Assembly: GCA_024137785.1 (NCBI GenBank)
Contig: JAHRHZ010000061.1
Location: forward strand, 5,587,050 to 5,651,049
Length of the DNA: 64,000 nt
Origin: Ginglymostoma cirratum
Lineage: Eukaryota
Direction of reading: 5' to 3'
Below, piece by piece: positions 32,801 through 56,958 of this stretch. The position numbers and the translations under genes were made by a program. Positions within the stretch are counted from its first letter, which is position 1. Each line of letters starts with the position of its first letter. Under the pieces are notes generated by a model, which did no database searches, was not told the origin of the DNA, and worked only from the letters and a program-made list of their open reading frames with translations.

Positions 32801-33869
32801 GTGGGTCAGAGAGACGCTGGCGGCGGCGGCAAACTCTGGGGTTTTCTCTCTCTCTCTCCCCCGCCCCCCCAATAAGTTTCTCTCTCGGTGAGGAGAGGGG
32901 CTAGGTCCGAGCTTCTGATGGCTCTTCTTGAGTTGGTCTGTGCTCTTTACGAAATGTTTAGCTTTTTTGTTTCACTTTTCTGTCTCCCCCCCCCCAGGCC
33001 ATGAAACAGCGAAGTGAAGGTTTTCTGGAGTAGTTCAGAGATTGAGCAGAAAGCTGGGGATGGGGGATGGGTTCCCATCAGGTTTCTGGTGAATGTTTTA
33101 AAGAGGCAGGTTTTTTCATATATGGCCTACAGACTAATCCCCCTTTTATAGTTGTTAAGTCTTGTTCTTAATTATAACATAAATGCTGAAGCCAGTTGCT
33201 TTTTGAAGTTGCAGTGTTTCAAAGTTTGCAGTTGTCTTTTTTTTATTTAATGGTTCATTCGCGTTACTTTCTGAACTTTAATTTGCAGTTGTGTTGGTAG
33301 GAGATGTGTATCCTTTCTCAGTTCAACCCCATTCTAAACTGAAATAATTTTCAAATTGATTTGGTAACATGGAGAGGAGGTGTAAATATATATTTCCTTG
33401 TTGCATACAAATAAATCCTTTTAATGTGTTTAAATTTATTGCACTGTCAAGAATATACAACTCATGTACAGATGTTGCCAATCTTCTTTTGTTTGAGTTC
33501 TGTCATGAATAAGGGTTCAGGTTAAGTTTAGATGCAGTGGTTGTAGGTACATGTAGGTTGTTCCGTTCTTTAGAACTAGACTCCTTGGCAATGGGTTGCT
33601 AATCATTGACAATGTTATATCAGCAGACACAAACAAGACACTATTTATCATCGCAATTCTCAAAAAGTAAAAATAACCCATTTCTCAAAGATGAAAAGTC
33701 ATCATGTGTTGTAGACGGTTTCTTGAGTTAATTGAAATATCAAAAAGGGTGAAGGTTTGATATTTGCCTTCATGACTATGACTAATTTAAGTTTTGCACT
33801 GCTCCCATTTCTCCTGTTTAATCCAAGACGTCCAAGCTTTCCTCTAGTCTCTGATCCTTTACACACATG

Positions 33870-34320
33870 TGGGCATTAGCTGTGGTTTAGTAGTAGCGTT
33901 GCCACTTCTGAGACTGAACACCCTTGGGTTTAAATTTCACTCCAGAGAGTTGAAGACAAAATCTAGGCTGACAAATTGAGTGCATCCCTGAGGGAATGCT
34001 GCACTGTTGGAGGTGTTGTGTTGCAAATGGAACGTTAAATCAAGAACCCCGTCAGCTGCTTTGGGCACTCATTTAAAAAAAAATCCATGGTATTCTGCAA
34101 AGAACAGCCATGGGATAGTCTCTGAAGGAGTTCTGGCCAATGTTTGCCTCTGAGTCAGCACCATCAGTACGGATTATCTGATTATCATTATTACTATTTG
34201 CTATGTACAAATTGACAGCTGCACTTCCTACAGTACAGCAGTGACTACACTGATGGCTTCAGAGCACCTTAGAATGTCCCTGGGGTTTAATATGTCTTAT
34301 CTGAATGCAAATTTTTTTTA
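33870..34320 (+). mobile_element. DeuSINE (SacSINE1/AmnSINE1-like) in DCBLD2 intron 1
   Basis: aaaatctaggctgaca..ctgagggaatgctgcactgttggaggtg..aaatccatgg..ctggccaa..cagtgactacac. Confidence 0.75.
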
Positions 34321-35659
34321 ATAGCGTCACCAGTATTCTACTTTAACGGCAGGTGCTTTTTTGATATTGTTAATCATTCCAGATTCACATGCTTCTCTTT
34401 CACCCTCTCAGTTGTGACACTGATAAGGGGCTGCACTTCAAAATACCATCTATGTCCTCAACTATCTCTCTCTTCATACTATGGAACCATGGATCATCTT
34501 CCACCTCCACCCACTGCCTCCCAGCCCCAGCCCCATCTACTACCACCATTTCAGCCAGTGCAGTAAGCCAGAGCCAATACAACTGCTATATCCTTGTTAA
34601 ACTGATCATGCCACAATCCACAGTAAATGTAAGTTCTCTCATGTTGCCTTCCCTGTTTGTAACTCTTTGCAATTAGTGTTAAGGTTAGCCTGTACCACTT
34701 ACAGTATGACTGTATTCCAGTGCCAGATTACAATGTAACAACCTGAGCTTTCATGAGCATGTGCTTTACAACTGAAACTCAAGAACCCTTGAAATTCAAC
34801 TGAAACTGTCCCATTTAGCTGAAAGTCTCGAGTGGCACTTTGTTTTTGTACTGGACTTTGTGACCGAGAGGCAACTGGAACCACTAATTCAGAATGCTTT
34901 GCTGAAAGCTTACTCACTGTCCCGATGCCAGCGAAGTATCAAACTGTCACCCACTTTCTGCAAATAATTTCCTCTCAAAATAAACTTGACTTTTCAAATA
35001 AAAATGCAAAACTATTGCAGAATGTTTGTGCAGAGCCGCTACTGTTAAAATGCAGATCCAGGATTATAAACCTAGTAAATGTTAAAATCAGCCTGATCTA
35101 TATTGTCAAGATCAGATCCATATTGATCTGCTGCCCCCAACACAATGCAGATCAAATTTGAGGTGTTCAGAAATGCATGTATGCAAGCTGCTGTGTACAC
35201 AATCCTTGAAGACTCATCAACAATTTCTGACTATACTGAAAATTGAGGAAATGACTCATAGCATTCCAATGTATTCGATACTTTTAGCAATCTATACATG
35301 AAATACGTTTACCACAAAGTTCCTGGAACTAGTCATCCATCAGTGTCTGTCATTAGTTAGACATCCCAAAGACAATTTTTAATTTCTGTGATAATTTATC
35401 TTGCCAGCTGTTGGAAGTATATGATGGAAACAGTATGGCAACATCTACAGGGCATTTAGGATCAAAATGAAGTGGGCAAACAACTTTATATCTCCCTAGT
35501 AAATCAGATTGTAGGATTGTGAAATGAACAGAGCAGGGCCTGAACGTGAAAGTGTAAATTATGGTTGCAAAAATGCGGGGATAGAAAAAGATTCTCTCTC
35601 TCTCTCTCTCAATCAAAAGTGAAAAATTTATTACTATGAACTCCAGCAATTTCAACCTA

Positions 35660-36215
35660 AATTAGTGTGGTTACACACCATTTTGCTGTTTTGGGCCCCT
35701 GACCTAATGAAAGGTAGGGGTTCTTACCATTGAAGGAGTATAGCAAGGGTGCACCAGGCTGATTCCTGCAATGACATGTTTTCCATATGGGGAGAGATTG
35801 AGTCAATTGAGCCGATATTTACAGGAGTTTAGAAGAATGAGTGGGGGTCTCATTGAAATATAAAGTTCTGACAGGGCTGGACAGACTGCTTGCAGGGATG
35901 TTTTTACCCCTGGGTGAGTCTTCCAGAGCAAGGGGCCATAGTTTCAGGAGATTAAATAGGTCATTTGGACTGAGATGTGGAGAAATTTATTTGCTCGATG
36001 GGTGGTGAACCCATAGAATTTTGTACCTCAGGAGGCTGTGAAGGTCATGACACTGAATATATATAATAAGAAAGAAATAGATTTCTCAAGGCTGAAGGTG
36101 GCAAGATGTATGAGGGAGAAAGCAGGACAGTGGTGTTGAGATAGAGAATCAGCCGTGATGATGTTGAAAGGCAGAGCAGGCTCGATTGACTTGCTCCTCC
36201 TCCTAATTTCTATTT
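35660..36215 (+). mobile_element. CR1 3' fragment
   Basis: ggagtttagaagaatgagtgggggtctcattgaa.. CR1 3' region. Confidence 0.8.
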
Positions 36216-36217
36216 GA

Positions 36218-36990
36218 CAGAGTCATGGAGATGTACAGCACTGAAACAGATCCTTCGTCCAACTTGTCTATGCCGACCAGGTATCCTAAATAAATCTAGT
36301 CCCATTTGCAGGCATTTGGCCCATATCCCTCTAACCCCTTCCTATTCATATACCCATCCATTTTAAATATTGTAATTGTACGAGTCTTGAGCACCTCCTC
36401 TGGCATCTCGTTCCATACGCGCACACCCTCTGTGTGAAAATGTTACCGGTAAGGTCCCTTTTAAATCTTTACCCTCTCACTTTAAATCTATGCCCTCTAG
36501 TTTCCCCCCCCCCCCCGAGAAAAGACCTTAGCTATTCACCCTATCCATGCTCCTCATGATTTTATAAACGTCTATAAGGTCACTCCTCAGCCTCCGATGC
36601 TCCAGGGAAAATAGCCCGATCCTATCCAGCCTCTCCCTAGAGCTCAAACCCTCCGACCCTGGCAACATCCTTGTAAATCTTTTCTGAACCTTTTCAAGTT
36701 TCACAACATCCTTCCTATAGCAGGGAGACCAGTATAGCAAGCAGTATTCCAAAAGTGGCCTAACCAATGTCCTGTACAGCCGCAACGTGACCTCCCAACT
36801 CCTATAGTCAGTGTACTGACCAATAAAGGCAAGTGTACCAAACGCTTTCTTCACTACTCTGTCTACCTGGGACTCCACTTTGAAGGAACTATGAACCTGC
36901 ACTCCAAGTTCTCTGTTTAGTAACACTCTCCAGGACCTAACCATTAAGTGTATAAGTCCTGCCCTGATTTGCCCTACCAAAATGCAGCAT
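36218..36990 (-). mobile_element. CR1 (HER1-like) 3' fragment, relatively young
   Basis: ORF 36528-36980 (VKKAFGTLAFI..LYRTLVRPLLEYC..WSP..LEKVQKRFTRMLPG). Confidence 0.95.
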
Positions 36991-37509
36991 GCAAGAATTA
37001 ATTTCCTGTCAGGGAGATGGGTTGAAAATAATTAAGACTTATCAGGTAATCAAAAGGTTGCTTAGACTTAAATGACATGAATGATCTGGCTGTGAATAAT
37101 TTGCTGTGCAAGGGTAGCAGCTTCACACTGTTCAAGCATTTGATTGGGCAGCTAGACCACACGATTCTCTTAGTGAAGCAAGTATGGAGCACCACATCAT
37201 GGGCTGCAATTTTTCAATTTCCATGTTTAATTGCTCATTTGCTGTTGCCTGAAGTTACGGTGATGTTTGTGGTTAACTAGTTGTGAGTACACATGGCCTT
37301 GTCATTATTTTAACAGCAGGGTTTGGACCATAATTACATACATTCACCACTGATCTCCTCAGCACAGTTTAACCAGTCTCCCCGACACAAAATTAATTCT
37401 TACATGCTGCATTATGGTGTGCAAATCAGGGCAGGACTTATGCACTTAATGGGGAGAGTTCCTGAACAAAGAGACCTTCGAGTGCAGGTTCACCGTTATA
37501 ATACTTTTT

Positions 37510-37660
37510 CAAACGAAGAAACAGTCTTGAGGAAGGGGCACTGGACCTGAAATGTTAAAACTCAGCTTTCTCTCCACAGATGTTGCCAGACCTGCTAAGT
37601 TTTTCCAGCAACTTCTGCTTTTGTTCCTGATCTCCAGCATCTGCAGTTCTTTGGGTTTTT
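37510..37660 (+). mobile_element. Penelope pLTR fragment with decayed hammerhead core
   Basis: ttgaggaaggggcactggacctgaaatgtt..ctccacagatgttgccagacctgct. Confidence 0.7.
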
Positions 37661-39379
37661 TCTCTTGTACAATGCAATCTCTTTCACTTCATTAATATGG
37701 CACTTCACATCTATTACCTGTGTGTTTTCTGCATGGAAGATTAGTGTCTAAATAAAAATTGTGTGACCATCACATTCCAGATATTGTATGCTGTTACAGA
37801 TGGAAAATAATTGTGCAAAAAACAGAATGAAAGGCAGACATTTCAGACTGGGGTTCTCTGACCTGGAGCCTGAAATCTATAAGTAGTGACTGGGGCCACT
37901 TGAGCATTTGCTTTAATGTGACAGGTCACATTTACAACAAATACCAATGACCTTGTCCCAGATTGTGAACAAGCAAAATCAATAATATGAAAATTTTGCC
38001 AGCCAAATCATTGCAATCAAAAATGAGCAGGAGTGATTTGGCTTGGTGTGTGTGTGGTTGTGGTGAGGTGCGAGTAGCTGGTGGTACGTTGGCCTGTTAG
38101 ATAATGGTACGTAGGGTTCTGTAAACTTTGAGGTAAATTAGAACCTGACTCATTCTTTATCTCCTGAGCTGGTGGTTGACAAGCCAACAGTTGTACAGGG
38201 AGTGAAAAGGAAGTTGAATTATTTTACCTACTAGTTGACTGAAACATTGGTTTACAATGAACTGATCAGAAAGTTGGATCATGAGACCACAGTGACAAGT
38301 ATTATAGATTTGTACGTATACACGTGCAATGAGGACTCATTAATACTGACACAATATAAAATAGACCTGTAATTTCTTAATAAATTTCAAGTTGAATTTT
38401 TGTTGACATTATTTTGCTGTGTAGTATATATTAAATTAGTGGAAGCTAGATCATGTAGCCTCTTTTTAATTTGTAACATTGGATCAGATACTAAGCCATT
38501 TGGCTCTTTGAGATTATTGAATATGTCAAAATTTAGGAGTTTACGTTGTGTTTAGTATGACAAAGATTGTAACAAAAACAAACTTATTACTTGTTCCTTT
38601 AAGCATTCTCACTCTTACTTTGCAGTTAGAAATAAATTTTACTCAAACTTTCTCCAGAAGAGAATCATCAATGGGATGAAATAAATCTTCGATCGAGTCA
38701 ATCGGATAGGGAAGAGCGATTAAAAGGCTTTGAGTAACCAGATACGGTAGAGAGGTATTGAGGAACGCATGAAATACCTGCAGGCTGACAGGTTGCTCTA
38801 TTCGTCAACTGATCAAAGCTGAACAACACATTGTCACATTTCACTTAGCTTGGGACATTTCCAGCACTGACTGTAGCTGATGTTGGTGAGTTAATCAAGT
38901 GCTTTGTTTCTAGTATTGCTTCAGATTGCTCAGGCTGTACTTGGCATATAGGATGGTGGGGAATATGTTAACCCAGCATATGAGATAATGCCATTCTTCA
39001 GTGACAAATTACAAGTTTCAGTCTGTACTTGGCATCTAAGTTGGCCATTAACTTTCAACAGTTTTAGTCAGTGAGTCCCATATGGTTTCTTAAGTACCTT
39101 ATTAACCTGTCCTGTTGCCTTTAGGGGTCTGTGGACAAGTACTGCAAGATCTCACATTGGATAGTTAAGGTATGGAATGCACTGCCCGGAAATGTGTTGC
39201 AGGCAGGTTGACATGAGGCCTTCAAGATGACACTGAATAACTAACGCAGCACAAATAATTTATAAGGGTGTGGGATGGGGTGAACCTGGAGACTGACAAA
39301 AGGTAATGAGACTCTTGAACAGCCAGTACGGTTGTGATGGGCCTTCTCTGCTGTATGACTTCTGTGGTTGGTTGTCAGG

Positions 39380-40800
39380 TCGTAATTGTTGCAGAAGCAG
39401 GGAGGAATGAGACGACAGAGGAATTTCGGGCACAAAAATGAGAATGTTGAAATTAAGGCATTGCTTAATGGAAGCCACTATAGATCAAAGAACATGAACA
39501 TTATTTGTGATTTAAGAAAAGAGCAGCTGAGTTTTGGATGGCCTTACATTTACATGGGGTTGAATGGCAAAAGTGCATTGCAATAGTCAAGAGTTAACAA
39601 CGGCATGAATAAGGGTTTCAGCAGCTGATGAACTGAGATAGACACCAAGTTGGGCGATGTTATGGGGATAGAAATAGGCAGTTCTTAGTGATGGTAAGAA
39701 CATATGGTTAGGTTCAATTTGGGATCACTGACACTAAGGTTGCTTTGAGTTTCAGGCTATTATCCTGGAGATAGATTGAGCAAATAACTGGAGAACTGAG
39801 TTTGGAGCCAAGACTGAAGACAATAGCATATAGACCTTTCCAATATTTAATTGGATGAAACCTCTGCTCATCAAGTGCTGGATGTTGGAAAGGTGCTTGA
39901 TAATGTAGAGGCTGTGCAGGAGTCAAGAGGGATGCTGGTGCTGTTGTCAACTTACAGTTGAAAGCTGACCTTGTATTTCCAGATGATACCAACAAAGGCA
40001 GCACGAAGATGAGAAATTGATGGGGACCCAAGGACCGATATTTGGGAGACCCCAGAGATTACAGCGTGGGTGTTGAAAGATAAGCTATTGCTGTAGTTGG
40101 ATAGATAGAACCAGATGAGTGTATCCCATTCCTCTGAAAACCAGTGAGTAACTGTTACACAGAATTGCGCAGGACTGGGACAGGATAGTGTAGCAGTCAG
40201 GTCGAGGAAGACGAGGCAGTGTAATTCACTGCTGTCATAGTCACATGGGTGTCACTTTATGAATTGGAGAACTGTTCCAGTGCTGTGTCAAGGCAGAAAC
40301 CTGAGTTTTGGGAAAAACGGGTGTGCAATTTGGAAGCTTCAACACATTCAAGGGTTTTGCAGAGGACAGGGAGGGAGTTCGGAGAGGTTACAAGGACAAG
40401 GGTACATGATTTTTTTAGGAGGAGAGTAATAATATCAGCTGGCATGGGAGTGAGGAGGAAGTTGGGTGGCCAGTTTAGTGGGAATAATGTCAAGGAAGCA
40501 GGAACAATGTCTTATTGATATGGTGAGCTCAAAGAAGACTTGAGGGGAGATGAGAGAAAGAGGTTTAAGGAAAAAAACAAAAGTTCAAGGTAAGGGAAGG
40601 AGGGGAACCTCATCAGAAAAAGTTTGGTCAGGTGGTTTGGGAGAGAAAGTGAAGTGGCTGAGGCATCTGATCAGATTGGCATCACAGTTGAGACAAAGAC
40701 ATCCATGTCTTTGCACTTGTTCATCAAGATGAGAGTATTGTGGCTTACAATGGAGAAAAGAAACCAAAGGTTATCTTGGCATTTGAAGATGATCCTGGAG
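39380..40800 (-). mobile_element. L2-like LINE fragment, highly decayed
   Basis: gcattgcaatagtcaagag (reverse of SRLDYCNAL), ggtccccatcaatttctcatcttc (LGP..FLI), purine-rich L2-type antisense sequence. Confidence 0.6.
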
Positions 40801-41729
40801 TAGAGTGGTTTCAGGTGTGTTCACCAAATAGTTAAGTAACAAATTTCTGAAAATCACAACCATTCAGCTTTTTTTCTAACTATAAAGGTGCTCCTTACCT
40901 TAATACTTAAATTCAATGCAGAAACATTGAAGTGTAATCATGCACAGATACATCAGCCTTTTTGATGTTTAAGTCTTACATATTTAAGTGCTCAGAACTT
41001 TATAAAACAGCTCAGTGCATTTGCTCTTGCAAATCTTTTTTATGAAAACGCTACTGATTTTGAAAGCAAATTTAAATACAACCTAAAATGGGGAAAAAAA
41101 TTACTTTTTCTCTTTAGAACCAACTTATATATGATACATCTTGTAAATCAGTATACTTCTCTAGCTTAGGGGATTTTTGTTTGGTTCCCAGCTTAACTCG
41201 ATCCATTATTTTTAATCGCATTTACCATTCAGCTAAGTGGTTAACAGTTGTATCTAATAACGGAGAAGTGACATTAATGTTTTGCAGAATTGTTTAGCTC
41301 TAAAATGATTTCACAATGTACTGAAATGGACATGTGTCCATCTTAATGTACAGGTTGTGCATACTGCGGGTTATGATGGTTGCAGTTCAGAAAATGTACT
41401 ATTGTTTTTGATGTTTTGGTTGATATCATGGAGCTAGTTGAGTCAGTTTTGGGTTGAGATTTTAAAAACCTGTCTTACATTTATACAGTCAAAGCACAAT
41501 CCTGCATGTGTTGCAAATCAGTGATAAAACAGAATGCATCAGTTTAGGTAGCATCTTTGTAGAGAGGGTACATCTGTGCATTTATACAGTACCTTGCATA
41601 ACTTGACATCACAAAACACCTTGCAGTTAATGAAGTATTCCTGCTATGTAATTTGGTCTGGGCATTTGCAAGTTTCACTTACTCTGGAAATATTATGCTT
41701 GGCAAATTATGAAAGCAGAAAATTTACAG

Positions 41730-41885
41730 CAATTTCTGATTTTATTTCTAATTTCCAGCATCTGCAACAAAATCAGAAATTGCTGGGAAAAAACTCAGCA
41801 GATCCGACAGCGTCTGTGGAGAGAAAGCAGAGTTAACATTTCATGTCCAGCGACCCTTCTTCAGAACAGATCTGCAACATCTTGC
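41730..41885 (-). mobile_element. Penelope pLTR fragment with hammerhead-like core
   Basis: Minus strand GTT-CTGAAGA-A-GGGTC-gctg-GACAT-GAAAT-GTT-AAC (~41832-41867). Confidence 0.7.
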
Positions 41886-41910
41886 TTTTAGGTCCGTCTG
41901 GAGTTTGTTG

Positions 41911-42141
41911 TGACCTGTAGGTGCTGGTATTGGACTGGGGCTGACAAGGTCAAAAATCACGTGACACCAGGTTATCGTCCAACCGGTTTATTTGAAAACA
42001 CTAGCTGTTGGAGCTCTGCTCCTTCCTCAGGTGTAGTAGGTGTAGTGTGCGCGACACCTGAGAAAGGAGCAGAGCTACGAAAGCTAGTGTTTTCAAATAA
42101 ACCTGTTGGACAATAACCTGGTGTCGTGTGATTTTTGACCA
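41911..42141. mobile_element. Penelope pLTR-derived fold-back element (third subfamily) with 12-bp TSD
   Basis: Arms ~41948-42034 and ~42054-42140 are inverted; TSD tggagtttgttg at 41899-41910 and 42142-42153. Confidence 0.85.
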
Positions 42142-43372
42142 TGGAGTTTGTTGGATGTGGCAAGCGTGGGCTCGTGGTGCGTGGTTGTTAAAGCTTTCAT
42201 TGAGTTCAGTATGCCCGTTGCACTTTAATGGAGTATGTTAGACTGAGTCTCATTAAGTCTCATAACCTGCAGTGACTTAGAAGGAACTGATGTGCACTCG
42301 TGATGTGAGAATCTTAGAGAAAGGAGTGTGGGGGGTGCCTAGTGTAAGGGAGTGTTCTTATAACTGTAAATATGTTAAAATAAAATTGTGTTTTACAGCC
42401 AGCAGTCTCTGAGAATTATTTGAAACTGTTCCAACCTGACACAAATAGTTTCAGCAGCTGAGTAGCAAATAATTCTGAATGTGCAATCATAAGCAGGCAT
42501 CCCCACTTCTGACCTGAAGATGGGGGACAAGGTCAAACCCAAATACTTAATTTGCTTACAGCACAGTAAGACCAGTCTTGGAAACAATCAAATCTGTGTA
42601 TGCAGCATGGCACACACGTTGCTGGGTTCATTTTGTGGAAAGGCGCCAATCTCTCTCTCATTTGCTGCAGTAGTGCATCAAGATTATTCTGTTCCATTAT
42701 TGTATGTTTTCAGTTGAATCTTGGTGTGGACATGAGCATGCAACTCCATTAGATCCTTGGGCTTAAACACATCCTTTACACAGCTACTTGTGAGCTTTCA
42801 CTGGATATGGAAGTTCTTGGGTGAGAATGTGTGTAATAGTCACTTAAGTGAAATGATATAAATGTCAGTTCAATAGAGTAAGAGACTTCAAATTAGCATT
42901 TGTTTTGGGAGTATAATATTTTAAAAGCAGAAATATTAAATTTGATTAGAAATGACCTGAGGTTGGCTCCACCCTTCTCCAACTGTGACACTGTATCTAG
43001 GCAAAGAGAATTTTTGTTCTGGGACGTAGTCCCTGATTGAGACCATCACTAGAATCAGTTTTAGGAAATTTTAGATGCAAAAGCACAACTCTTTGAATTT
43101 TGCCTCATAAACTAGATGGAACATGTTCAAGTGAAAAATCAAAGCAATAACACAAGGGTAGTAGTAACTAATATGCTGTGTATCAGGAGTTTAAATCTGA
43201 TCACTTTGAGACTTCAGTCTCTCTGGATATGGAAGCTTTCTCAAGCGACTGAAGCTTCAAAAGCTGATAAAGTTTCACTGAGTTGCTTGTTTGGAGGAAA
43301 GCAAGATTGAAATAATAATAACCTGCACTCCCTGGAGAAGTTACTGTTGAGCTGCCTCCTTGAATCTTTGCA

Positions 43373-46300
43373 ATTTGTTTTCACTGAATTCAATAAAAAT
43401 AAAATCTGGAATTATGAATCTACCTATCACCGTGAAATCATTGTTGATGGTCAGATAAACCTACGCTAATGCCTACCCTCACCTGGCCTGTCTTACATGT
43501 GACTCCAGACCCACAGCAATGTGGTTGACTCTCAGTTGCCTTCTGAAATGGCCTAGCAAGCCACTCAGTTGTATCAATCGTGACAAAGTCTCAGAAATGA
43601 AACCAGATGGATCACCTGGCATTGACCTAGGTACCAGAAAAGACAAGGCAGAGTCTTCCTCACTAACATCTGGGGGTTAGTGCCAAAATTGGGAGAGCTG
43701 TCTCACAGACTAGTTAAGCAGCAGCCTAACATAACTATACTCACAGAATCATACCTTACAGACAATGTCCCAGACACCACCATCCCCATGACAGACAAAA
43801 ATACTGCAGATGCTGGAATCCAAGGTAGACAAACAAGAGGCTGGAAGAACACAGCAGGCCATACAGCATTTGGAGAAAAGGAGAAGTCAAGGTTTAACCC
43901 TTCTTCACCATCACCAACCCTGGATATGTCCTGTCTCACCAGCAGGACAGACCCAGCAGAGGGGGCAGCACAGTGGTATACAGTCAGGAGGGAGTTGCTC
44001 TGGGAGTCCTCAACATTGACTCCGGACCCCATGAAGTCTCGTGGCTTCAGGTTAAACATGAGCAAGGAAACCTCCTGCTGATTACCACATACCGTCCTCC
44101 CTCAGCTGATGAATCAGTACTCCTCAGTGTTGAAGAACACTCGGAGGAAGTACCGAGGATGGCAAGGGCACAAAATGTACTCTGGGTGGGGGATTTCAAT
44201 GTCTACCACCAAGAGTGAGTCGGCAGGAGTATTACTGATCGAGCTGGTCGGGTCGTAAAGGACATAGCTGCTAGACTGGGTCTGTGGCAGGTGGTGAGGG
44301 GAAAAACATACTTGACCTCATCCTTACCAATCTGCCAGCTGCAGTTGCATCTGTCCATGACAGCATCGGTAAGAGTGACCATTGCACAGTCCTCATGGAG
44401 ACGCAGTCCTGCCTTCATATTGAGAATATCCTCCATTGTATTGTGTGCCACCATCACTGTGTTAAATGGGACAGACTTCGCACAGATCTAGCAAGTCAAG
44501 ACTGGGCATCCATGAGGCACTGTGGGCCATCAACAGCAGCAAAGTTGTACTCCAGCACAATCTGTAACCTCATGGCCCAGCATATCCCTCACTCAACCAT
44601 TACTCAAGCCAGGGGATCAACCCTGGTTCAATGAATAGTGCAGGAGGACATGCCAGGAGCAGCCCCAGGCATACCTGAAGATGAGGCGTCAATCTGGTGA
44701 AGCCACCAAACAGGACTACTTGCACACCAAACAGCATAAGCAGCAAGTGATAGACAGAGCTAAGTGACCCCACAACTAACAGATCAGATCTAAACTCTGC
44801 AGTCCTGCTACATCCAGTAGTGAATGGTGGTGGACAATTAAACAACTCCCCGGAGGAGGAGACTCCACAAATATTCCTATCCTCAATGATGGAAGAGCCC
44901 AGCACATCAGTGCAAAAGATAAGCCAGAAGTGCCAATTGGATGATCCATCTCGGCCTCCTCCAGTGGTCCCTAGCAATACAGATACCAGTCTTCAGCCAA
45001 TTCAGTTCACTCTGCGTGATATCAATAAACAGTTAGAGACACTGGATACTGCAAAGGATACAGGCCCTGACAACATTCTGACAATAGTACTGAAGACATG
45101 TGCTCCAGACCTTGCCACTCCCCTAGCCAAGCTGTTCCAGTACAGCTACAACACTGGTATCTACCCGGCAATGTGGAAAATTGTCCAAGTATGTGCTGTA
45201 CATAAAAAAGCAGGACAAATCCAACCCGGCCAGTTACCGCCCCATCAGTCTCCTCTCGGTCATCAGTAAAGTGATGGAAGGTGTCATCAACAGTGCTATC
45301 AAGCAGCACCTGCTCAGTGACAAGCAGTCTGGGTTCCGGCAGGGGCATTCAGTTCCTGACCTCATTACAGCCTTGATCCAAGCATGGACAAAAGAGCTGA
45401 ATTCAAGAGATGAGCAGAGAGTGACAGCCCATGACATCAAGGCTGTATTCAACAGAGTGTGGCACCTGGAGCCTTAGGAAAACAGGAATAAATGGGTATT
45501 GGGGGCAAACTCTCTGGTGGTTGGAGTCATACCTAACACATATGAAGATGGTCATGGTTGTTGCAGGTCTATCATCTCAGCTCCAGGACATCTCTGCAGA
45601 AGTTCCTCAGGGTAGTGTTCTCGGCCCAACCATCTTCATTAATGGACCCCCCCCAAAAAAAAAATCATAAAGGCAGAAGTGGGGATGTTCACCGATGATT
45701 GCGCAGTGTTCAGTCATTCATGACTCGTCAGATACTGAAGCAGTCCATTTTGCAAGGCAACAAAATCTGGACAATATCCAGGCTTGGGCTGACAAGTGGC
45801 AAGTGACATTTGCACTACACAAATGCCAGGCAATGACCATTATGAATGAGAGACAATCTAACCACTGCCCCTAGGCATTCAATGGTGTTACCATTTCTGA
45901 ATCCCCCACTGTCAACATCCTGGGGGCTATAATTGACCAGAAACTCACCACATTAACAAAGTGGCTACAAGAACAGGCCTGAAGCTGGGAATGCTGTGGA
46001 GAGGAACTCCGCTCGTGACTCCTCACGGCCTGTCCACCATCTACAAGGCACAAGTCAGGAGTGTGATGGAACACTCCCCACTTGCCTGGATGAGTGCAGC
46101 CCCAACAACTCTCAAGAAGCTTCACACCATCCAGGACTAAGCAGCCCACTTTATTGGCACTACATCTACCAGCATTCACTCCCTCCACCACCAACACTCA
46201 GTAGCAGCAGTGTGTACTATCTACAAGATGCACTGCAGAAATTCACAAAAGGTCCTCAGACAACACCTTCCAAACCCTCGACCACTTCCATCTAGAAGGA

Positions 46301-46574
46301 CAAGGACGGCAGATATATGGGAACACCACTACCTTCAAGTTTCACTCCAAGCCACTCATCATCCTGACTTGGAAATATGTCGCTGTTCCTTCACTGTCGC
46401 TGGCTCAAAAACCTGGAATTCCCTCCCCTATGGCATTGTGGGTCAACCAGCAGCAGGAGGAATGCAGCAGTTCAAGAAGGCAGCTCACACCACCACCTTT
46501 TAAAGGGCAGCTAGGGATGGGCATGAAATGCTGGCCAGCCAGCGATGCTTACATCCCATAAATGAATAAAAAAA
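43373..46574 (+). mobile_element. near full-length single-ORF CR1/Zenon-like LINE (APE + RT), frameshifted; 10-bp TSD
   Basis: NIWGLVPKLGEL..LTESYL, TTYRPP, GDFNV, LDLILTN, SDH, GPDNI, YRPISLLS, GFRQGHS, DIKAVFNRVWH, VPQGSVLGPTIF, FTDD; A-rich tail; TSD aatctttgca at 43363-43372 and 46575-46584. Confidence 0.9.
43790..43905 (-). mobile_element. Penelope pLTR fragment nested in the LINE APE region
   Basis: actgcagatgctggaatc..aagaacacagcaggcc..acccttcttca, flanked by caccatc(c/a)cca. Confidence 0.65.
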
Positions 46575-46584
46575 AATCTTTGCA

Positions 46585-47270
46585 GCTGTAGGAACATCCA
46601 GTGCTGTTAGGAAAGTTAGGTCCTGTAGTTGGACCAATTGGCAATGAAGGAATGATGATACAGTTCCATGTTAGCATGGTGTATGACTTAGAGGGGAACT
46701 TGAAGGTGTTAATGTTCACGTGCATCTAATGTCCTTGTCAGAGGTGATAGTATGAGCTATGTGAACTGGGGACCACTATCAAAGGAATGTCACTGTATTA
46801 TTGCATGAATCTTGGAGATGGTACACATTGCTGCCAGTGTGCCTCAGTGATGAAGGGAGTGAGTGTTGAAAGTTTTGGATGAGGTGCCAGTCAAGCGAGG
46901 TGTTTTGTTCTGGATAATGTCAAACTCCTGGAGTATTGATGTACTGTATTGTACTCCTAACTTGTAATGCCTTGTAGATGGTGGACAGGCAAGGAAGGGG
47001 CAGGAGCTGAGTTACCATCGGCAGAATTCCGAGTTTTTGACCTGCATTTTTAGCCAGAGTATTTAAATAGCTATCCCATTTCACTTTCTGGTGAAAGGTA
47101 ATCCTCAGGATGTTTCCCGTAGGGGTTTGTTGAGGATAGTGCCATTGTACATCGTGCGTCAAGTTTAGATTCTCTCTTGCTGGAGATGCTCAGTGTCTGC
47201 CATGTGGCGCAAATGTTACTTGCCATTTCTCAGCCTGTTCTTGAATGTTGCCTGGGTCTTACTGTATGTT
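46585..47270 (-). mobile_element. older antisense copy of the same CR1/Zenon-like LINE (host of the 43373 insertion; continues at 43330-43362)
   Basis: ORF 46920-47162 (NILRITFHQKVKWDSYLNTLAKNAGQKLGIL..LSTIYKA). Confidence 0.75.
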
Positions 47271-47293
47271 GACGCAGAGATATGAGCGGATAC

Positions 47294-47602
47294 AGTGGTG
47301 TAGTGGCAATGTCACTGGACTAGTAATCCAGAACCCAAGACCAATCGTTGGAGGACATGAGTTCAAATCCCACCAAGGTAGATGGTGAAATTTGGATGAA
47401 AATCAGGAAAGAAAAATCTAGTCTAATAGTGACCATTGTTGATTGTTTATGAAAGGCCATCTGTTTTACTAATGTGATTTTAGGGGAGGAAATCTGCCAT
47501 CTTTTCCTGGTCTGGCCTACCTGTGATTCCAGATCCACAGCAATATTATTGACACTTAACTGCCCTCTGGGCAATTAAGGATGGGCAACAAATGCTGGCA
47601 AA
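47294..47602 (+). mobile_element. tRNA-headed bipartite SINE (LINE 5'UTR + LINE 3' tail)
   Basis: A-box tggtgtagtgg, CTGGA-CTAGTAA-TCCAG arm, B-box gagttcaaatccc; body tggtctggcctacctgtgattccaga; fused to gggcaattaaggatgggcaacaaatgctggc. Confidence 0.8.
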
Positions 47603-48279
47603 AAACCTCTGGGTACATCTTCACAGAAAGTAGTGCAATGACATATGATCTGTCTGTCTGTTGCATCCTTGTGGCAAGATGAAGCTATAGAATAATGTTT
47701 CTTTAATGGAGTTAATTGGGCCCTTATCCTAGCAGACTCTGTAAATGTTCCATTATAACATCAATATGGCTTTAGAACAGAGTTTCAATGAGTTTTCTAA
47801 AACTTTGTGAATTATCAATAAATGATTTTTTTTGCCAAATGTGTTCTCGTTTGGCAAATTTGGTTCTGATTGATGGAGAGACGTATTTTATTCTTGGGTC
47901 ACTCTCGGCTGGCCACAGATTGGAAAAGCTCCTATTGGGACTTTTTTAAGAATTTATTATTGACAGCATTGGGCTTAGAGGGCTGTGGACAGACACTGAG
48001 TGTCCTGAGGCAGACTGCTATTTTGAATAGCTTTTGTGGCTTTTTATGTCTCTGAACAGTAGTAGTTTCTCAGGAAAAATACAGGTCAATGGAGGGGGAG
48101 CTGATAGCACCCAATAATAGGCCAGCTTGTTTTTGCAGAGCCTAGAACAACAGTTGAAAAATGTAAAAGTTTATTTGTTAGGCTTCTCTTTGACCGGTCC
48201 ACTAGCTGCAGCGGTGACCAACGTAGACGGGAAGCAATAGTTAGTTCATCTGCAGCAGAAACACTCATCTGTGATCTCC

Positions 48280-48800
48280 AGATCTACCCATTCCCTGACC
48301 AGCCTTCTGTTTTACCCTCTGCGCTTTTGTTCCCATTTAAAATCTCTGCCCTTTTTGGTTTACTTGCACCAAATCCTGTCTCCCCATTTCCCCCTGTGCT
48401 CCCTGACATTTATTGATCCTCGGTTTGTCATGATTGCATTTTAGAAGTTTCATCCTTGTGTTCATGGCCCCGTCCTGCCTCAGGAATAACCTCAGCCAGC
48501 ATTATAAATGAAATCTTTGGTAATCCTCCAAATTTTTGCACAGTCCTGATTTTGTCATGCCACCATTGACAGCTGAAACTTCATCTGCTAGGCCTGAACT
48601 CTGGAATTCCATTCCCCATCACTACCCATAATCACTCAATCATTTTCTCTCCCTCCTCTAAGTCGCAGCTTAAAATGTAGGCCTTTGATCTAGCTTTTGT
48701 TCATGTGGTCTAATGTCTCTTTACTTAGCTTGGTGTCCAATGTCATTGGATAACTGCTCTTAGGACATTTTGAGATTAATGACCAAATATTAATCAACTT
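48280..48800 (+). mobile_element. L2 3' fragment
   Basis: ctctggaattcc..ttaaaa..ctttgatctagcttttg L2-type tail pattern. Confidence 0.5.
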
Positions 48801-49923
48801 GTTGTTGATTTGTCACTGGTCAGAAACCAGAGAAAGTGAATTGGCTGCCTGTTTTGCAACCTGCACATTTTTATTTTTACCTTCTCAATTCTTATCAAAA
48901 GGGGAGAAAAGGTTTCCTTAAACATACTACGAGGAGTGCGTACAGTTCATCCTCAAGCCAGCATTGTTCTAAAATGGCGATCAGATGTTTTCTTCTGGGT
49001 AAACACATGTTTAGTCCTTTGACTCATATGTTTCAGGTTAAGAACATGGGGAGGAAGAAGTATCTGCCTTAAGCATCATTCCAGCTGGAGCGCACCCAGC
49101 TGCAACAACAACATATTAGAATTTATCAGGATAAAATGTCTGGTTGAGTGTGGTAGTGCCATTAAACACTTGCACATAACCACAAAAACTTACTGAAGGT
49201 CTCTTTGTACCTTTATTAAATATATATTGAATACACTGTGACTATTATGTTCTAAGAAAGTGTCAACCAGTCCTCAACTCACGCAATCAGGCTTATGATT
49301 TGATTATCCTCAAAGAGCTGTTGGCAGAAAAGCATCTGCTTGAGAAGACCCTGCTCTCTCCAGAAACATCTGGCACTTTATTGTCTGTTTACAGCTGGTC
49401 TGATCGGTGCCGTGATTTCAAGCTGTAGGTAATGCATTTAACGTCAAATAATTATTTTGGGCTCATCATTCAAAATAAAAAAAAAAGGGAGCCCATTAAA
49501 TAGTTTACCCAGTGACCTTACAAAGGATAATAAGGCAATTCATCTAAGAATGTAGATAGCGTTAATTACTGTTGGATTTGTATATTCTGAGGTTTTCAAC
49601 AGCAGGATCAAGGCGTTTGGATCACTTACTCCCCCCTTGTAGGTAGGAATTGTTAGATGAGAACGATGCCAAGCTTCGTCTTGTTTGCTTTCCACCACCT
49701 TGGCTGTTGCATGGTAAAATTTTGTTGAAGTAATTAACAGTCATCGGAATTGATCTTAAGCCATCTGTTTACAACAGGCCCGGACATGGTATGAAGAAAA
49801 CCAGAATGGTAAAGTATTCCGGGAACTGTAGGAGTCAGCTGTTCCTCCCGAGCATGCTGCAGTTAGCATGTCGTGTCTCCATTTATTCAATGTATCCCAA
49901 AGAGTTATTTCTTGGAAAAACAT

Positions 49924-50930
49924 TAAGACCATAAGATATAGGAGCAGGTGCAGTCCATTCGGCTCATCAAGCTTGATTCATCATTCATTATGTTAATGGC
50001 TGATCTTGTACCTTGGCAATTCCTCCCCATGCTACGCCCTCAATTCTGGATTCCCTTTTATCCCAAAATCTATTAAAGTGTCTTAAATGTACTCAATAAC
50101 GGAGTTGCCAGTGCTATCTCAGGCATATAATTCCATATATTCACAACCCTTTGAAAGAAGATATTTATCCTCCTCTTGATCTTAAATGACTGACTGGTAA
50201 TTCTAAGACTGACCCCTTGTTCTCGATTCCCAACACAGGGGAATTAGCCTGCCACCAAGCTCAAATCCTTGAAGAATTGTGTACGTTTCAATAAGATCAC
50301 TCTCTAGCATTCAGAAAAATACAGAAAGTTTACCCTGTTCAAGTTCTCCTCCTATGCCAATTCACTCATTCACTCAATTCACTCATTCATCCAGAAATCA
50401 TTGATTGCCCTCTGTCTAAGAAATGTATATCCTTCCTTAGGTAAGGAGACTATATCTGTCTAATTTTCATTCGAATGAATCAATACTAATAACTGCCACT
50501 GGCATCCCCAGGGAGTCTGTTCACAGATTGATCATTTGCTCACTGAAATATCGTTTCTGCAGATTAGTTTTGAATTTACCTTGCTTCAGGCACAGGCCAT
50601 GTCCTTTAGTTCTACAGTTCTGGTCAATGTGAAACAGCTTTGCATGGTGTGTGTTGTCTAGTCCCTGTGGAGTCCTAAAAGCAGCGATTATATCACCTCG
50701 AAGCATAATTGCTCATCATAATCTAATCCTTCCGTCATCTCAATCGGTCTGGTTACTCCCTTCTGTGCTCTTTCAATGGCTGCTTTTATACCAGACTCCC
50801 AGAGCTCTGCACGGTATTCACAGTAAGACTGCGCTGATAACCTTGCAGTTTGTCAATTATTTTCCTATTGTATCTCGAAATTGCCCTTTTATTCCATCTC
50901 AGCATTTGTCTTGTTTTGCTCACTGCAGTT
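49924..50930 (-). mobile_element. CR1 fragments
   Basis: taagaccataagatataggagcag tail; ORF 50521-50706 LRGDIIAAF..RTKGH. Confidence 0.75.
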
Positions 50931-51569
50931 AACAGTCTTTGTAATTACAAAGTTAGTCCGAGACAGAAAATAGGTTCCTTTTAGTGCCCATGTTCAGTAT
51001 GTTTGTGATGAAACGTGCATTTTTTTACACTGTGTATCCCCATTAAATAATTCCAGCAATAAGTTTTTGGCAGTTTTAAAGTATGGCAGGTTGTTAATTC
51101 TCATCTTATATTACCACTTCTTCCTTCGCTGTTGTGAGTTCAGACTGTATATTTTAAATCATTCATAGAGGTGTTTAAAAACCTGAGATCTGAATACAGT
51201 AGAAAGGGAGAAAGTGTTCCCAAAATTAGGTTTGATACTTATATAATAACAATTTGGGTTGATTGGCAAAAGAACCAAAGGTGACTTGAGGAAAAGGTTT
51301 CTTTTAATAAACACAACATGTAGTTAGGATCTGAAGTGCACCGGAAGTGTGTGAAACCAGGTTTTCAAAATGTAATTGGATAATTGTCTAAAATTGTAAG
51401 GATGGGCAAAGGGTGATTGACCTCAGATGATATTTTTAAAACAAGTATTAACTATGCGTCTGGTATAATTTATCAAGCAATGAAGAGAAAAAAAATACAT
51501 TTTATAGGTGTTGACATTGACCCTAAAGGTATAGAGTAACATGCTCCTTCCTTCTTGGTTTACGTTAAA

Positions 51570-52450
51570 GCATAAGAAATAGTAACAGGTGTGGGCCATT
51601 CAGCTCCTCGAGCGTTCTTCGCCTTTCAATTGAATCATGGTTCATCAGACATTCCTCACATCCATTTTCCTGCCCTTTCTGTGTAACCCTTGATTCTCTC
51701 ACTACCTAAGAATCTACCTATCGAGCCTTAAATATACACAGACTCCGCCCCTACAATTTTCTGTGGTGAGGAGTTCCAAAGACACCCAACCTTCTGAGAG
51801 AAGAAATTCCTTCTTATCAAAGTTCAAAATTGATGCCCCTTTATTCAGAAGCTGTGTCCTTTGGTCCCAGACTCTCCCCTAAGGGGAATCATCGTCTCAG
51901 CCTTTATCCTGTCAAGACCTTTAAGAATCCCTTATGTTTCAATGAGATCACCTCTCGTTCTTCCAAACTTCAGCGAATAGAACCCCAACCTGTTTAGTCT
52001 TTGTTCATAAGACGATGTCTCCATATCAAGGATTATCCTAGTGAATCTTCTCTGAACTGCCTTCAAAGAAATGATTTCGTTCCTTAAATAAGAAGACCAA
52101 AACTGCTGTCATTACTCCAGATGTGATCTCACCAGCACCTTGTATAGTTGCTGTAAGACTTCCCTACTATTATATTCAAACCCCCTTGAAGTAAGGGCCA
52201 ATGTTCCATCAGCTTTCCTAACTACCTGCTGCATTTGTCTGCTAAACTTCTGATGGAGGGTCATTATGCTTAAAATTCTGATTTCTCTCCACACTTGTTG
52301 CCAGACCTGCCATGTTTCTCCAGCATTTTCTGTTTTTGTTCCAGATTGTCTGGATCTGCAGTTTTTTTATTTTAATTTATGCTAGCTTTTTGTATTTCCT
52401 GCACAAGTACCCTCAGGTCAGTTTAGTGTTGCAGCTTTCTGCAGTTTTTC
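51570..52450 (-). mobile_element. CR1 3' fragment with a Penelope pLTR piece (~52255-52375)
   Basis: ORF 52112-52294 QQVVRKADGTLALTSRGFEYNSREVLQQLYKVLVRSHLE. Confidence 0.8.
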
Positions 52451-52809
52451 TTTGATTTTTCATTAGAACAGAACATTATTTAAATAATGTTGTCAAGATT
52501 AGAACAGAAAAACTGACAACAAAAGATGGATATTTACAAGAGAGCAGCAAGCCACAGAAAAATGCTGGCTGTAATTTAGAAAAGACATGAGTCACTAACG
52601 GCCAGTAAAGTACAAATATTATTTGTTAGAACTTGTAGTTTTATTTGATGGAATTTTTAAACACTAAAGGAATTGTGTGAATCATGTCTTTAGAGGAAAT
52701 GTGGAAAGATGTAAGAGGGAGTTCTGTTATGAAAATGAAAACTGGATATATTTGTCTCACTTATAATGTTTCAGCAGTACTTATTGTTACTGAAATATTC
52801 ATGAAAACT

Positions 52810-55022
52810 CCAGTTAGTATCAATCTAAACGACTTTGGATCAGTTATGCTACCAAAATACCATCAACACATCTCTTGGCCCATCAGAAATTCAGACATCC
52901 TTGACCATTGCTACACCATCATTAAAGATGCCTAGTGCTCCATTTCCCATCTGCATTTTGGAAAATCTGATCACATTGATGTCCTCCTCTTCCTAGCATA
53001 CAGGTAGAAATTGAAGCATGAGGACCCAATACAGAGAGTAGTGCAGTCTTGGCCTGAGGCAACACAAGAGTTTCTACAGGACGGCTGAGAGTCGGTGCAT
53101 ACTGAAGATCTCAGCTGCCAACCTAAATGTGTGTGCCACTACAGTTACAGACTTCATTAGTAAGTACGTAGATGGCTGCGTGCTGAAGAAGTTAATCCAA
53201 GCATTCCCCAGTTGGAAACCATGAATGAACTGGGAGATTCATTCCCTACTGAAATCCAGGTCAGAGGACTTGTACGGGAAATCCAGATACGACCTTCACA
53301 AGGCCATCCGAGACGCCAAGAAACTTTGAGACCCAGACCAACCATGCAGACACCTGTTGTTTGTGGCAAGGCTCACATGACATTATGGACTACAAAGCGA
53401 AGTTGAACAGAATTGTAGGCAACAGTACATCCCTCCCCGACGAGCTCAATGCATTCTATGCTTGCTTGGAATAGAAGGTCAGCCAGCGAAACAATGTCAC
53501 CTGTCTCAACAGCCTCGGGTGCACTCTGCACCCATCATTACAGCTGCAGACGTTAGATCGACCTTCTTGAGAGTGAACCCATGGAAAGCGTCTGGCCCAG
53601 ATGGACACTCCAGCTGTGCACACAGATCCTGTGCTGACCAGCTGCTGGGATGATTTGCAGACATCTTTACACTCTCCTCACTTCAATCCGAAGTCCCCAC
53701 CTGCTTCGAGAAGACCAACATCATCTCGGTACCAAAGAAAAATCCTGCAGCGTGCCTCCTAGTGGCTCTGACCTCCATAATTAGGAAGTGCTTCAAGAGG
53801 TTAGTCATGGCTCACGTCAACTCCAACATACCAAATTGCGTTGGTTCTTTGCAATTCATCTACCTGCACAACAGGTCCACAGCAGATGCCAGCTCCCTGG
53901 CCCTACACTTACCCCTGGAACATCTGGATAATAAGGACACCTATGTCAGACTCCTACTTATTGACTACAGCTCCACCTTTACCACCGTAATTCCAAACAA
54001 ACTCATGTCTAAACTCCGAGACCAGATCTCGGCTCCCCGCTCTGTAACTGGACCCTTGACTTCCTGACCGCAATCAGTAAGAATAGTTGACAATTTCTCC
54101 TCCAGCATAATCCTCAACACCATTGCCCTGCAAGGCTATCAACTCTGTACACATTCACGACTGTGTGGCTATATTCCGCCCCAAATCCATTTACAGGTTG
54201 GCTGACCATACCACTTTTGTAGGTCAGATCTCAAACAACGATGAGACAGAGTACAGGAAAGAGATTGAGTGCTTAGCGGAATGGTGTAAGGACAGGAATC
54301 TCTCCATCAGTGTGAGCAAAATGAAGGGTCTGGTCATTGACTTCTGGAAGTGCAGTGGAGGTCACACCCCTGTCTGCATCAATAGTGCTGAGGTGGAGAT
54401 GGTCGAGAGCGTCACATTCCCGGGAGTGGTGATTGCCAAACAATCTGTTCCGGTCCACCCACATGGACAAGAAAGTACAACAACGTCTCTACTTCCTCAG
54501 GCCCACAAGGACTCTTACCAATTTTTATAGATGAACCAAAGAAAGCATCCTATCTGGATACATCACATCATGTTACGGCAAATGTTCTTCCCAAGACTGT
54601 AAGAAACCGCAGAAAGTCATGAATACAGCCCAGTCCATCACACAAACTGGCCTTCCATACATTGATTCCATCTATACTTACTGTTGCCTTGGGAAAGCAA
54701 CAAATATGATCAAAGACCCCTCCCACCCCGGTTATACTCTCTTCCATCCTCTTCAGTCAGGCAGAAGATACAGAAGTTTGAATACCCGACAAAGAGATTC
54801 AAGAACAGCTTATTCCCCGCTGTTATCAGACTTTTGAATGGACCTCTCAAATGTTAATTTTGATCTGTCTCTCTGCACCTTCTTTGTGATTGTAACACTG
54901 TATTCTGCACTCTGTTCTGCTACCCAGATGCACTTTGTATGGTATGATCTGCCTCAACAGCTCTCAAAACAACACTTTTCACTGTATCTTGGTACATGTG
55001 GTAACAATCAATCAATCAATTA
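52810..55022 (+). mobile_element. Rex1/Babar LINE, 5'-truncated, degenerate
   Basis: LDHCYT..HFGKSDH, RVNPWKASGPDG, VALTSIIRKCFKRLV, RSTADA, YVRLLLIDYSSTFTTVIPNKL; tail (aatc)n. Confidence 0.9.
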
Positions 55023-55604
55023 AATCGATATGGGAGAGTTTAAACTGGTTAACAAGAGAATCTTTGAGACAAATTGTAACAGCGTTTTTTTTTAAATTGG
55101 CTTAAGTTGATACTGGGAGAGATGGTGACTCTGTAATGCTGTCACTGGACTCGTGATCCAGAGGCCCAGGACATGGGTTTGATTCCCACTATTATCAGTT
55201 GTGGAATTTGAATTCAAAAAATAATTAAGACCATTGCACACAGGAGCAGAAATTAGGCCATTCGGCCCATTGAGTCTGCTCTTCCATTCAATCATGTCTG
55301 ATAAGTTTCTGTGGCAGTGAGGTCGAGAGATTCACCACTTTCTGGCTGAAGAAGTTTCTTGTCATCTCCACCCTAAAGGATCTTCCCTTTACTCTAAGGC
55401 TGTGCCCTTTGGTCCTAGTCTGAACTGCTAATGGAAACATCTTCCCAAAGTCTACTCTGTCCAGGCTGTTCAGTATTTTGTAAGCTTCAGCTAGATCCCC
55501 ACTCATCCTTCTAAACTCCATCGATTATAGACCCAGAGTCCTCATATATTAAGCCTTTCATTCTCGTGAACCTTCTCCAGACCCACTGCAGGGCTAGTAC
55601 ATCC

Positions 55605-55938
55605 TTTTCTTTTCTTTATTCATTCATGGGCGTAGGCAGCATTTATTGCCCAAAGGGGGCGCTAAGAGTCAAACACATTGCTATGGGTCTGGAGTCACAT
55701 GTAGGCCAGACCAGGTAAAGATGGCAGTTTCCTTCCCTAAAGGACATGAGTGAACCAGATGGGTTTTTCCCGACAATCGACAATGGATTCATGGTCATCA
55801 TTAGACTCTTAATTTCAGATATTTTATTGACTTCAAATTCCACTATCTGCCATAGCGGTATTCGAATGCAGGCCCCCAGAACGTTATCTGGGTCTCTGGA
55901 TTAACAGTTCAGGGATAATACCACTAGGCCATCGCCTC
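55605..55938 (-). mobile_element. tRNA-headed bipartite SINE (same family as 47294), nested in CR1
   Basis: Reverse complement: ggaggcgatggcctagtggta..ctgttaatccag..ttcgaat..; aaacccatctggttcactcatgtcctttagggaagg; tail gggcaataaatgctg..atgaatgaataaa. Confidence 0.85.
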
Positions 55939-56653
55939 CTTCCTGAGGTGTGGGGCCCAAAATTGCTCACAGTTCTCTAAAAGTGGTCTGACCAGAGCTT
56001 TTTAAAGCCCCAGAAGTATATCCCTGGTTTTATATTCTAGTCCTCGCGAAATAAATGCCAACATTGTATTTGCCTTCCTAACTATCAACTCAACCTGCAA
56101 GTTTACCTTAAGAGAATCCTGGACTAGGGCTCCCATGTTCCTTTGCACTTCAGACTTCTGAATTTTCTCCCCATTTACAAAATCGTCCATGCCTCGATTC
56201 TTCTTACAAAAATGCATGACCCCACACTTTTCCACATTGTATTCCATCTGCCACTTCTTTGCCCATTCCCGTAACCTGTCTGAATCCTTCTGCAGCCTCG
56301 ATACTACCAGTCCTTCCAACTGTCTTTGTATCATCTGCAAACTTACCCAGAATGCCCTCAGTTCCTTCATCTAGAACATTAATGTATAAAGTGAAAAGTT
56401 GTAGTCCCAACACTGACCCTTGTGGAACACCACTTGTCACCGGCTGCCATCCTGAGAAGGTCCCTTTTATCCCCACTCTCTGCTTTCTGCCACATTGCCA
56501 ATCTTCTATCCATGCTAGCACCTTGCCTCTAACACCATGGGCCTTTACCTTAATCAGCAGTCTCCTGTGCAGCACCTTGTCAAAGGCCTTCTGAAAGTCC
56601 AACTAGATAACAACATCCGTTGGCTCCGTTTGTCTAAGCTGCTCGTTACCTCA

Positions 56654-56958
56654 TAGATCATAGAATCCCTGCAGTGTGGAAACAGGCCCTTCGGCCTAAC
56701 AAGTCCATACCGACTCTCACAGCATCCCACCCAGACCCACCCCCCATAACCCACCTAATCTACACATCCCTGAACACTATAGGCAATTTAGCATAGCTAA
56801 TCCACCTAACCTACGCATCTTTGGACTGTGGGAGGAAACCCATGCAGACACGGGGAGAATGTGCAAACTCCGCACAGGCAGTCACCCGAAGGTGGAATTG
56901 AACCCGGGTGTCTGGCGCTGTGAGGCAGCAGTGCTAACCACTGAGCTACCGTGCCGCC
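56654..56958 (-). mobile_element. HE1 V-SINE nested in CR1
   Basis: Reverse complement head ggcggcacggtagctcagtggttagcactgctgcctcacagcgccag..gggttcaattcc. Confidence 0.92.

Follow-up and report, generated by a model that had tools for sequence, protein, structure and literature searches.

The 231-nt insert at positions 41911..42141 of the window, the 64-kb stretch of shark DNA analysed here, is very probably the inactive, since-decayed product of a single retrotransposition event of a Penelope-like element (PLE). Its layout is most likely one already described for Penelope-like elements and not that of a new kind of mobile element, and the locus, which matters little by itself, most likely represents one decayed copy of a shark repeat that is very abundant. 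The insert sits in intron 1 of DCBLD2 (32801..61457, plus strand), between the first coding exon, which specifies the signal peptide (32707-32800, 78% identity to a shark protein named DCBLD2), and the CUB exon (61458-61690, 99% identity to a shark protein of that name); 11 of the best 12 of 120 listed homologs come from cartilaginous fishes. The exon matches on either side bear out the host intron that had been named in an initial annotation of this DNA. A Pfam search of all 365 stop-free frames of at least 55 aa in the window returned the CUB domain and four RVT_1 matches as the only meaningful hits, the latter being reverse transcriptase fragments at 45127-45474, 53654-54064, 56207-56602 and 60128-60445.

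The insert is bracketed by an exact 12-bp direct repeat (41899..41910 on the left and 42142..42153 on the right, plus strand), which, as judged from the repeated letters, would be a target-site duplication (TSD). When random 231-nt spans of the window were inspected, with 10 nt of slack allowed at both span ends, none of 1,497 placements had an exact flanking repeat of 10 bp or more and the longest reached 9 bp, so that the flanking repeat is above chance and the 231-bp unit with its 12-bp TSD is recovered as initially annotated. An empty target site was not found among the listed joints (15 of 55) from public reads and contigs placed on the insert. Within the unit, 41948..42034 (minus strand) pairs with 42054..42140 as inverted arms at 79/87 identity, that is, 8/87 sites differ; the repeat search lengthens the pair to 90 nt at 90% identity. 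The arms are oriented head-to-head and not as a head-to-tail tandem, and both begin at nearly one point, 4 nt ahead of hammerhead position C3. Each is a 5'-truncated pLTR with a degenerate minimal hammerhead. The plus arm (42054..42141, plus strand) has no tail, and the minus arm alone is continued at the left end of the insert by a 34-37-nt 3' extension, the PLE 'tail' (41911-41944/47, at most 41911..41947, minus strand), for which alignment finds no partner on the right side. The ends of the insert are therefore not terminal inverted repeats, since the left end is tail and not arm. A spacer of 19 nt without assigned strand (42035..42053) separates the arms; read on the minus strand it contains a short tandem duplication resembling the upstream letters of the family, and it is predicted to form a small hairpin. 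The earlier description as two inverted arms of about 87 bp is thus correct for the arms and had overlooked both the one-sided tail and the spacer.

Hammerhead-like letters are present in both arms exactly as first read, and a descriptor for minimal hammerheads matches the two arms with 1 and 2 core mismatches, in agreement with a hammerhead ancestry of both. This descriptor was composed after the motif had been seen and misses the two sister families of the window described below; with up to 2 core mismatches allowed it gives five matches in the window (both arms and three other places), and in six simulated 64-kb sequences it gives none at 0-1 mismatch and four in total at 2 mismatches. Rfam yielded no match of any kind in the window at the gathering threshold and no hammerhead match at E up to 10. 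Five weak non-hammerhead Rfam matches (E up to 10) were rejected as matches to a hairpin; the best of them were miRNA models, far below threshold.

Neither arm has an intact core (C3-G8 pair; G12, A13, A14). In the plus arm, with C3 at 42058 and the cleavage position after 42086, G8 is changed to A at 42063 and stem II has a mismatch at 42077; in the minus arm, with C3 at 42030 and the cleavage position after 42002, G12 is changed to A at 42009 and A14 to C at 42007. In hammerhead catalysis, G12 is proposed to act as the base and G8 as the acid (PMC6155905), and mutation G8C abolished the hammerhead of a PLE (PMC11167929). Reads of the family (see below) have C at 42077 in 630/772 cases, A14 in 89/97 and G8 in 177 of 376 plus-arm reads, the last split being biased by best-fit placement. 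Two letters common to both arms are in the minority in the family: A at 42086 occurs in 62/1,222 family reads and A at 42073 in 63/663 first-mate-plus family reads. Shared minority letters are as expected from one template, and the 8 differing sites fit later independent decay; together with the single TSD pair around the whole unit, the shared letters agree with the earlier view that the unit was inserted in one event.

For a transcript of the full unit, folding predicts a hairpin of -148.7 kcal/mol (z -17.2), in which arm-arm pairs have probabilities of 0.90-1.0 and those of hammerhead stems I and II round to 0 at six decimals; according to this prediction both hammerheads would be buried in the long hairpin. 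When the natural cores were cofolded, minus with minus adopted a swapped-partner fold, and plus with plus or plus with minus gave no clean dimeric hammerhead; these are minimum-energy folds and no measure of ribozyme activity. In the usual hammerhead dimer, each active site draws its CUGAnGA and GAAA boxes from one and the same monomer. Because the arms lie on opposite strands, no single RNA holds both hammerheads in sense, and given this topology and the loss of catalytic bases in each arm, the damage in either arm would not be made good by its partner. We therefore do not follow the proposal that the mutations of the two arms are functionally complementary; they are best read as independent decay. 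Among 4,053 RNA reads of the family (run X22), no pile-up of RNA ends was found at the hammerhead cleavage site, something that a fragmented poly(A) library can test only weakly, and the unique flanks of the insert are covered by about one X22 read.

The family was followed in related organisms by aligning the reads and contigs of public runs to 41850-42449 at a likeness of 82%. Contig set X1 (organism A, 2,562 placed), contig set X7 (organism B, 15,438 placed) and the X22 RNA reads (the 4,053 placed stem from about 24% of the run) were informative; RNA run X23, with 0 reads placed, is not evidence either way, and neither is a search across sequencing runs, which listed no RNA run with the element. 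Both organisms are relatives that may be of another species than the window, and contigs can drop variants. The arms represent a very abundant repeat, with a summed X7 depth that reaches 2.1 million at 42112, whereas the unique flank has about 12; these values do not translate into copy number. At 42054, adjoining the spacer, X7 has a depth of 11.6 and X1, with one contig, of 3.43, while X22 has 0. Since any copy with the same junction would cover 42054, the centre junction with its spacer is single-copy in both relatives, and self-comparison of the 64-kb window found no second copy of it. Thirteen of the 15 listed joints (of 55) connect a minus arm to a plus arm on one strand and represent other fold-backs; their coordinates all differ, and each is carried by 1-2 contigs per run. 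The remaining two are strand switches that we read as internal deletions. Joint coordinates are approximate, being blurred by divergence, and some joints have hammerhead-like letters between their sides; the joint from 42013 to 42080 is present in three runs.

Organism A has the same insert, since X1 record 1 (41850-42094) spans the left flank and the centre with 17/245 letters differing and record 8 (42083-42309) spans the right junction with 7/227 letters differing; X7 record 16 has 29 letters on the arm side only and was not counted as bridging. The insert is thus old, being common to organism A with these changes and having arms that differ at 8/87 sites. In all three informative runs, loose ends behind 42139/42140 run into tail-like sequence, and because other copies continue in this way the tail is part of the family. 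A loose end before 42064 in X22 comprises 772 RNA reads that share one upstream sequence (agreement 0.83), which suggests that a single copy or subfamily is well expressed in organism A. Scans with sequence patterns of the element gave 0 matches in metagenome contigs and 0 in viral contigs; a match to a shorter pattern (L001) had flanks unlike the element and was taken as chance.

Two further repeat families with hammerhead-like cores occur in the window, as found by self-comparison with the cores recognised by eye, and both include a fold-back. That of the second family (4427-4798) has the tail on the plus arm only and a 16-bp flanking repeat with 2 mismatches; that of the third (23843-24054) has the tail on the minus arm only, an exact 15-bp flanking repeat and a junction that lies inside the hammerhead. 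All three fold-backs found in the window, from three families, thus combine a TSD-like repeat (12, 15 and, with 2 mismatches, 16 bp) with a one-arm tail. The second-family fold-back encloses a 100-N gap flanked by a 47-nt exact duplication (4600-4646 / 4747-4793), which is probably an assembly overlap. A third-family copy at 12.86 kb, the hammerhead pLTR in which a 5'-truncated PLE (12860-14100, minus strand) ends, extends 1.15 kb upstream into a broken frame with an RT-thumb, a Cys-rich linker and a GIY-YIG-like motif, the linker and the motif being read by eye. This PLE frame (13.3-14.2 kb) obtained nothing from Pfam or the ESM Atlas and was identified via its homologs, 17 in number, of which 16 have PF26215, eight RVT_1 and two GIY-YIG. 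The Cys-rich linker and GIY-YIG-like motif at 12860-14100 may point to the Neptune clade, a hint that draws in part on the description of PLEs in PMC8557442. That ends consisting of hammerhead plus tail are PLE ends is shown directly for this sister family, and we infer the same for the family of the insert. The PLE origin proposed for the insert is upheld in that the published PLE architecture is matched and the sister family runs into a broken RT/GIY-YIG frame.

Several other repeats of the window are recorded here. A solo copy of the third family (41770-41869) with an exact 10-bp flanking repeat lies 30 nt to the left of the TSD of the insert and is abutted by a 20-bp inverted repeat (41727-41746/41766-41785). 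A 31-nt fragment of the family of the insert is found at 22166-22196 beside a short pentanucleotide repeat, and a 308-bp direct repeat of 95% identity is present at 16580-16887 and 17994-18300, about 1.4 kb apart.

Formation of the insert can be envisaged as follows. The GIY-YIG endonuclease of a PLE would cut both strands of the target with an offset of 12 nt, and the reverse transcriptase would prime on both cut ends, at the tail-end start site of the element's RNA on one and at its tail-less start site on the other. Both cDNAs would stop close to the 5' boundary of the hammerhead, to be joined head to head via a short, locus-specific spacer; repair would yield the TSD, and neutral mutation would later break each ribozyme core separately. 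The fold-back would then be a by-product that arises anew with each insertion and not a self-copying unit. Published features of PLEs provide the background for this model: insertions often comprise a 5'-truncated copy in inverted orientation, with a tail of 30-40 bp on one of the two ends (PMC8557442); inverted pLTRs are mostly head-to-head, with an 8-10-bp TSD, a 31-bp tail and junction palindromes that were read as self-priming (PMC3846280); Penelope of D. virilis has a 34-bp repeat and inverted termini (PMC2377424); pLTRs contain minimal hammerheads, with opposite-strand pairs 100-700 bp apart (PMC4209133); and the protein of an Anolis PLE nicks and extends both target strands, reverse transcription starting at two sites between which the tail lies (PMC11167929). 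The origin of the inverted and tail structures is stated as unresolved in PMC8557442 and PMC3846280. Snap-back of one cDNA onto itself is a close alternative that would lead to the same final structure and with which the small predicted hairpin in the spacer is compatible; two-strand priming is favoured over it only modestly.

Whichever way the two arms were joined, truncation of a PLE copy accounts incompletely for the position of the arm ends, which is tighter than random truncation suggests. By eye, the 5' ends of 10 of the 14 arms of the three families in the window fall within about -20 to +10 nt of C3, both in arms with a tail and in arms without; three arms reach 45 nt to 1.15 kb further upstream, one is a 31-nt piece, and the count is blind to arms under about 30 nt. 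The clustering would be explained by stalling of the reverse transcriptase at the ribozyme and equally by an RNA whose 5' end lies there. The latter leads to a reading in which the arms are full run-off cDNAs, templated either by a short hammerhead-bearing RNA of about 125 nt or by the short 5' portion of the PLE mRNA: reverse transcription would begin at internal tail sites and drop off the RNA 5' end just upstream of the ribozyme, so that the family would behave as a SINE-like satellite of shark PLEs, with each fold-back junction still being formed anew. The clustering irrespective of the tail speaks for it, as do internal initiation of reverse transcription, shown for one PLE (PMC11167929), and the D. 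virilis Penelope element, whose start site lies 46 bp before an intron (PMC2377424) with an end that maps to hammerhead helix I (PMC4209133). However, stalling at a structured ribozyme gives the same clustering, the three longer arms, the short piece and the detection limit do not favour a fixed RNA end, the listed joints spread over about 70 nt, and the X22 reads show no RNA-end pile-up, and we consider run-off copying unlikely.

The other explanations fare worse against the same data. The initial annotation takes the fold-back in its entirety for a MITE-like unit that bears ribozymes and was copied with a fixed junction, which would account for the one TSD pair around the whole and for arms that both begin 4 nt before C3. 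Such a unit is contradicted by the single-copy depth at 42054 in X7 and X1 (and 0 in X22), by the 13 other listed fold-back joints, all of which differ, by the window, where the junction does not recur, and by a tail on one side only; comparison of copy junctions, for the 15 of 55 joints listed and in relatives only, showed that other fold-backs of the family carry other junctions, the outcome that the initial annotation had set as its refutation, and we regard spreading with a fixed junction as very improbable. Two independent insertions of one abundant family that landed head to head would be conceivable for a family with 15,438 placed X7 contigs, but a single TSD pair encloses the entire unit, the arms have minority letters in common, and the one-sided-tail layout recurs in 3/3 fold-backs, which makes such a coincidence extremely improbable. 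Very little likelihood is likewise left for co-option by the host, either of the 87-bp hairpin in the DCBLD2 pre-mRNA as a substrate of editing or small-RNA pathways or of the hammerheads complementing each other in trans. The stability of the predicted hairpin and the retention of the insert in organism A could be taken in its favour; yet any inverted repeat folds likewise, the arm divergence of 9% is in line with that of the flanks and so gives no sign of constraint, the hammerhead stems are predicted at zero probability in the full transcript, the proposed acid and base positions G8 and G12 are both hit, and X22 has hardly a read on the unique flanks. The single PLE retrotransposition event remains the preferred reading.

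Minimal insertions of this type seem to be numerous in shark genomes, and their breakpoints could serve to tell priming on two strands from snap-back self-priming. TSD-bounded hairpins of this kind in sharks can be mistaken for MITEs or pre-miRNAs, as the best, far sub-threshold Rfam E-values obtained with miRNA models illustrate. Because 10 of 14 arm 5' ends cluster near C3, one may go further and speculate, with little confidence and less than we grant to run-off copying as such, that shark genomes contain huge numbers of paired run-off cDNAs of a short hammerhead-bearing RNA, made by a dimeric PLE enzyme that primes on both target strands at its two internal start sites and ending at the 5' edge of the ribozyme. 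If this were true, the fold-backs would be a genome-scale fossil record of how inverted-plus-tail insertions of PLEs form, and paired run-off cDNAs would constitute a satellite class of PLEs resembling SINEs.

MITEs are short, non-coding fold-back elements flanked by a TSD. The insert has these properties in common with them, but it differs in that it lacks terminal inverted repeats at both ends and a fixed internal structure in many copies, and in that its sequence is retroelement-derived. No PLE-derived MITE with a fixed junction and no description of the shark hammerhead family were found in the literature within reach, which excluded repeat databases such as Repbase and Dfam and most subscription papers. 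Non-LTR retrozymes (PMC7229834; bioRxiv 10.64898/2026.07.22.740005) are, like the insert, short, non-coding, hammerhead-bearing and related to PLE pLTRs; however, they are described there as head-to-tail tandems with circular RNA, whereas the insert is head-to-head with broken cores on opposite strands. Identity with a non-LTR retrozyme was rejected since the arms are inverted and not a same-strand tandem as in the published descriptions (PMC7229834, PMC6765202, PMC8969392, bioRxiv 10.64898/2026.07.22.740005).

The Poseidon element PAc of Anolis carolinensis (PMC11167929) has its tail downstream of the hammerhead, as has the insert, in which the tail ends about 90 nt past the cleavage position compared with 85-92 nt for the main start of reverse transcription in PAc, a distance we derived from the numbers of that paper; the likeness is drawn from layout and distances, and PAc, unlike the insert, is autonomous and was assayed. 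The minimal type-I hammerheads of metazoan PLEs (PMC4209133) correspond to the insert in the CUGAnGA box, an extra unpaired base before stem II, a 5-bp stem II, GAAA, the palindromic 15.2/16.2 positions and a short stem I, and close opposite-strand pairs have already been reported in Schistosoma (PMC4209133); both cores of the insert differ from them by changes at catalytic positions. Dimers of minimal hammerheads are reviewed in PMC6765202. The closest correspondence in layout is to canonical EN+ PLE insertions (PMC3846280, PMC8557442), which share with the insert a head-to-head inverted 5'-truncated copy, a short TSD (12 bp here and 8-10 bp in the rotifer examples of PMC3846280), a pLTR hammerhead and a tail at one end, 30-40 bp in length there and 34-37 nt in the insert. 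The insert differs from them in having no ORF and in that truncation has reached the hammerhead in both copies. It thus shows four of five marks of EN+ PLEs, namely TSD, inverted truncated pLTR, one-end tail and minimal hammerhead; the fifth, an RT and GIY-YIG frame joined to the pLTR, is seen only for a sister family at 12.86-14.1 kb.
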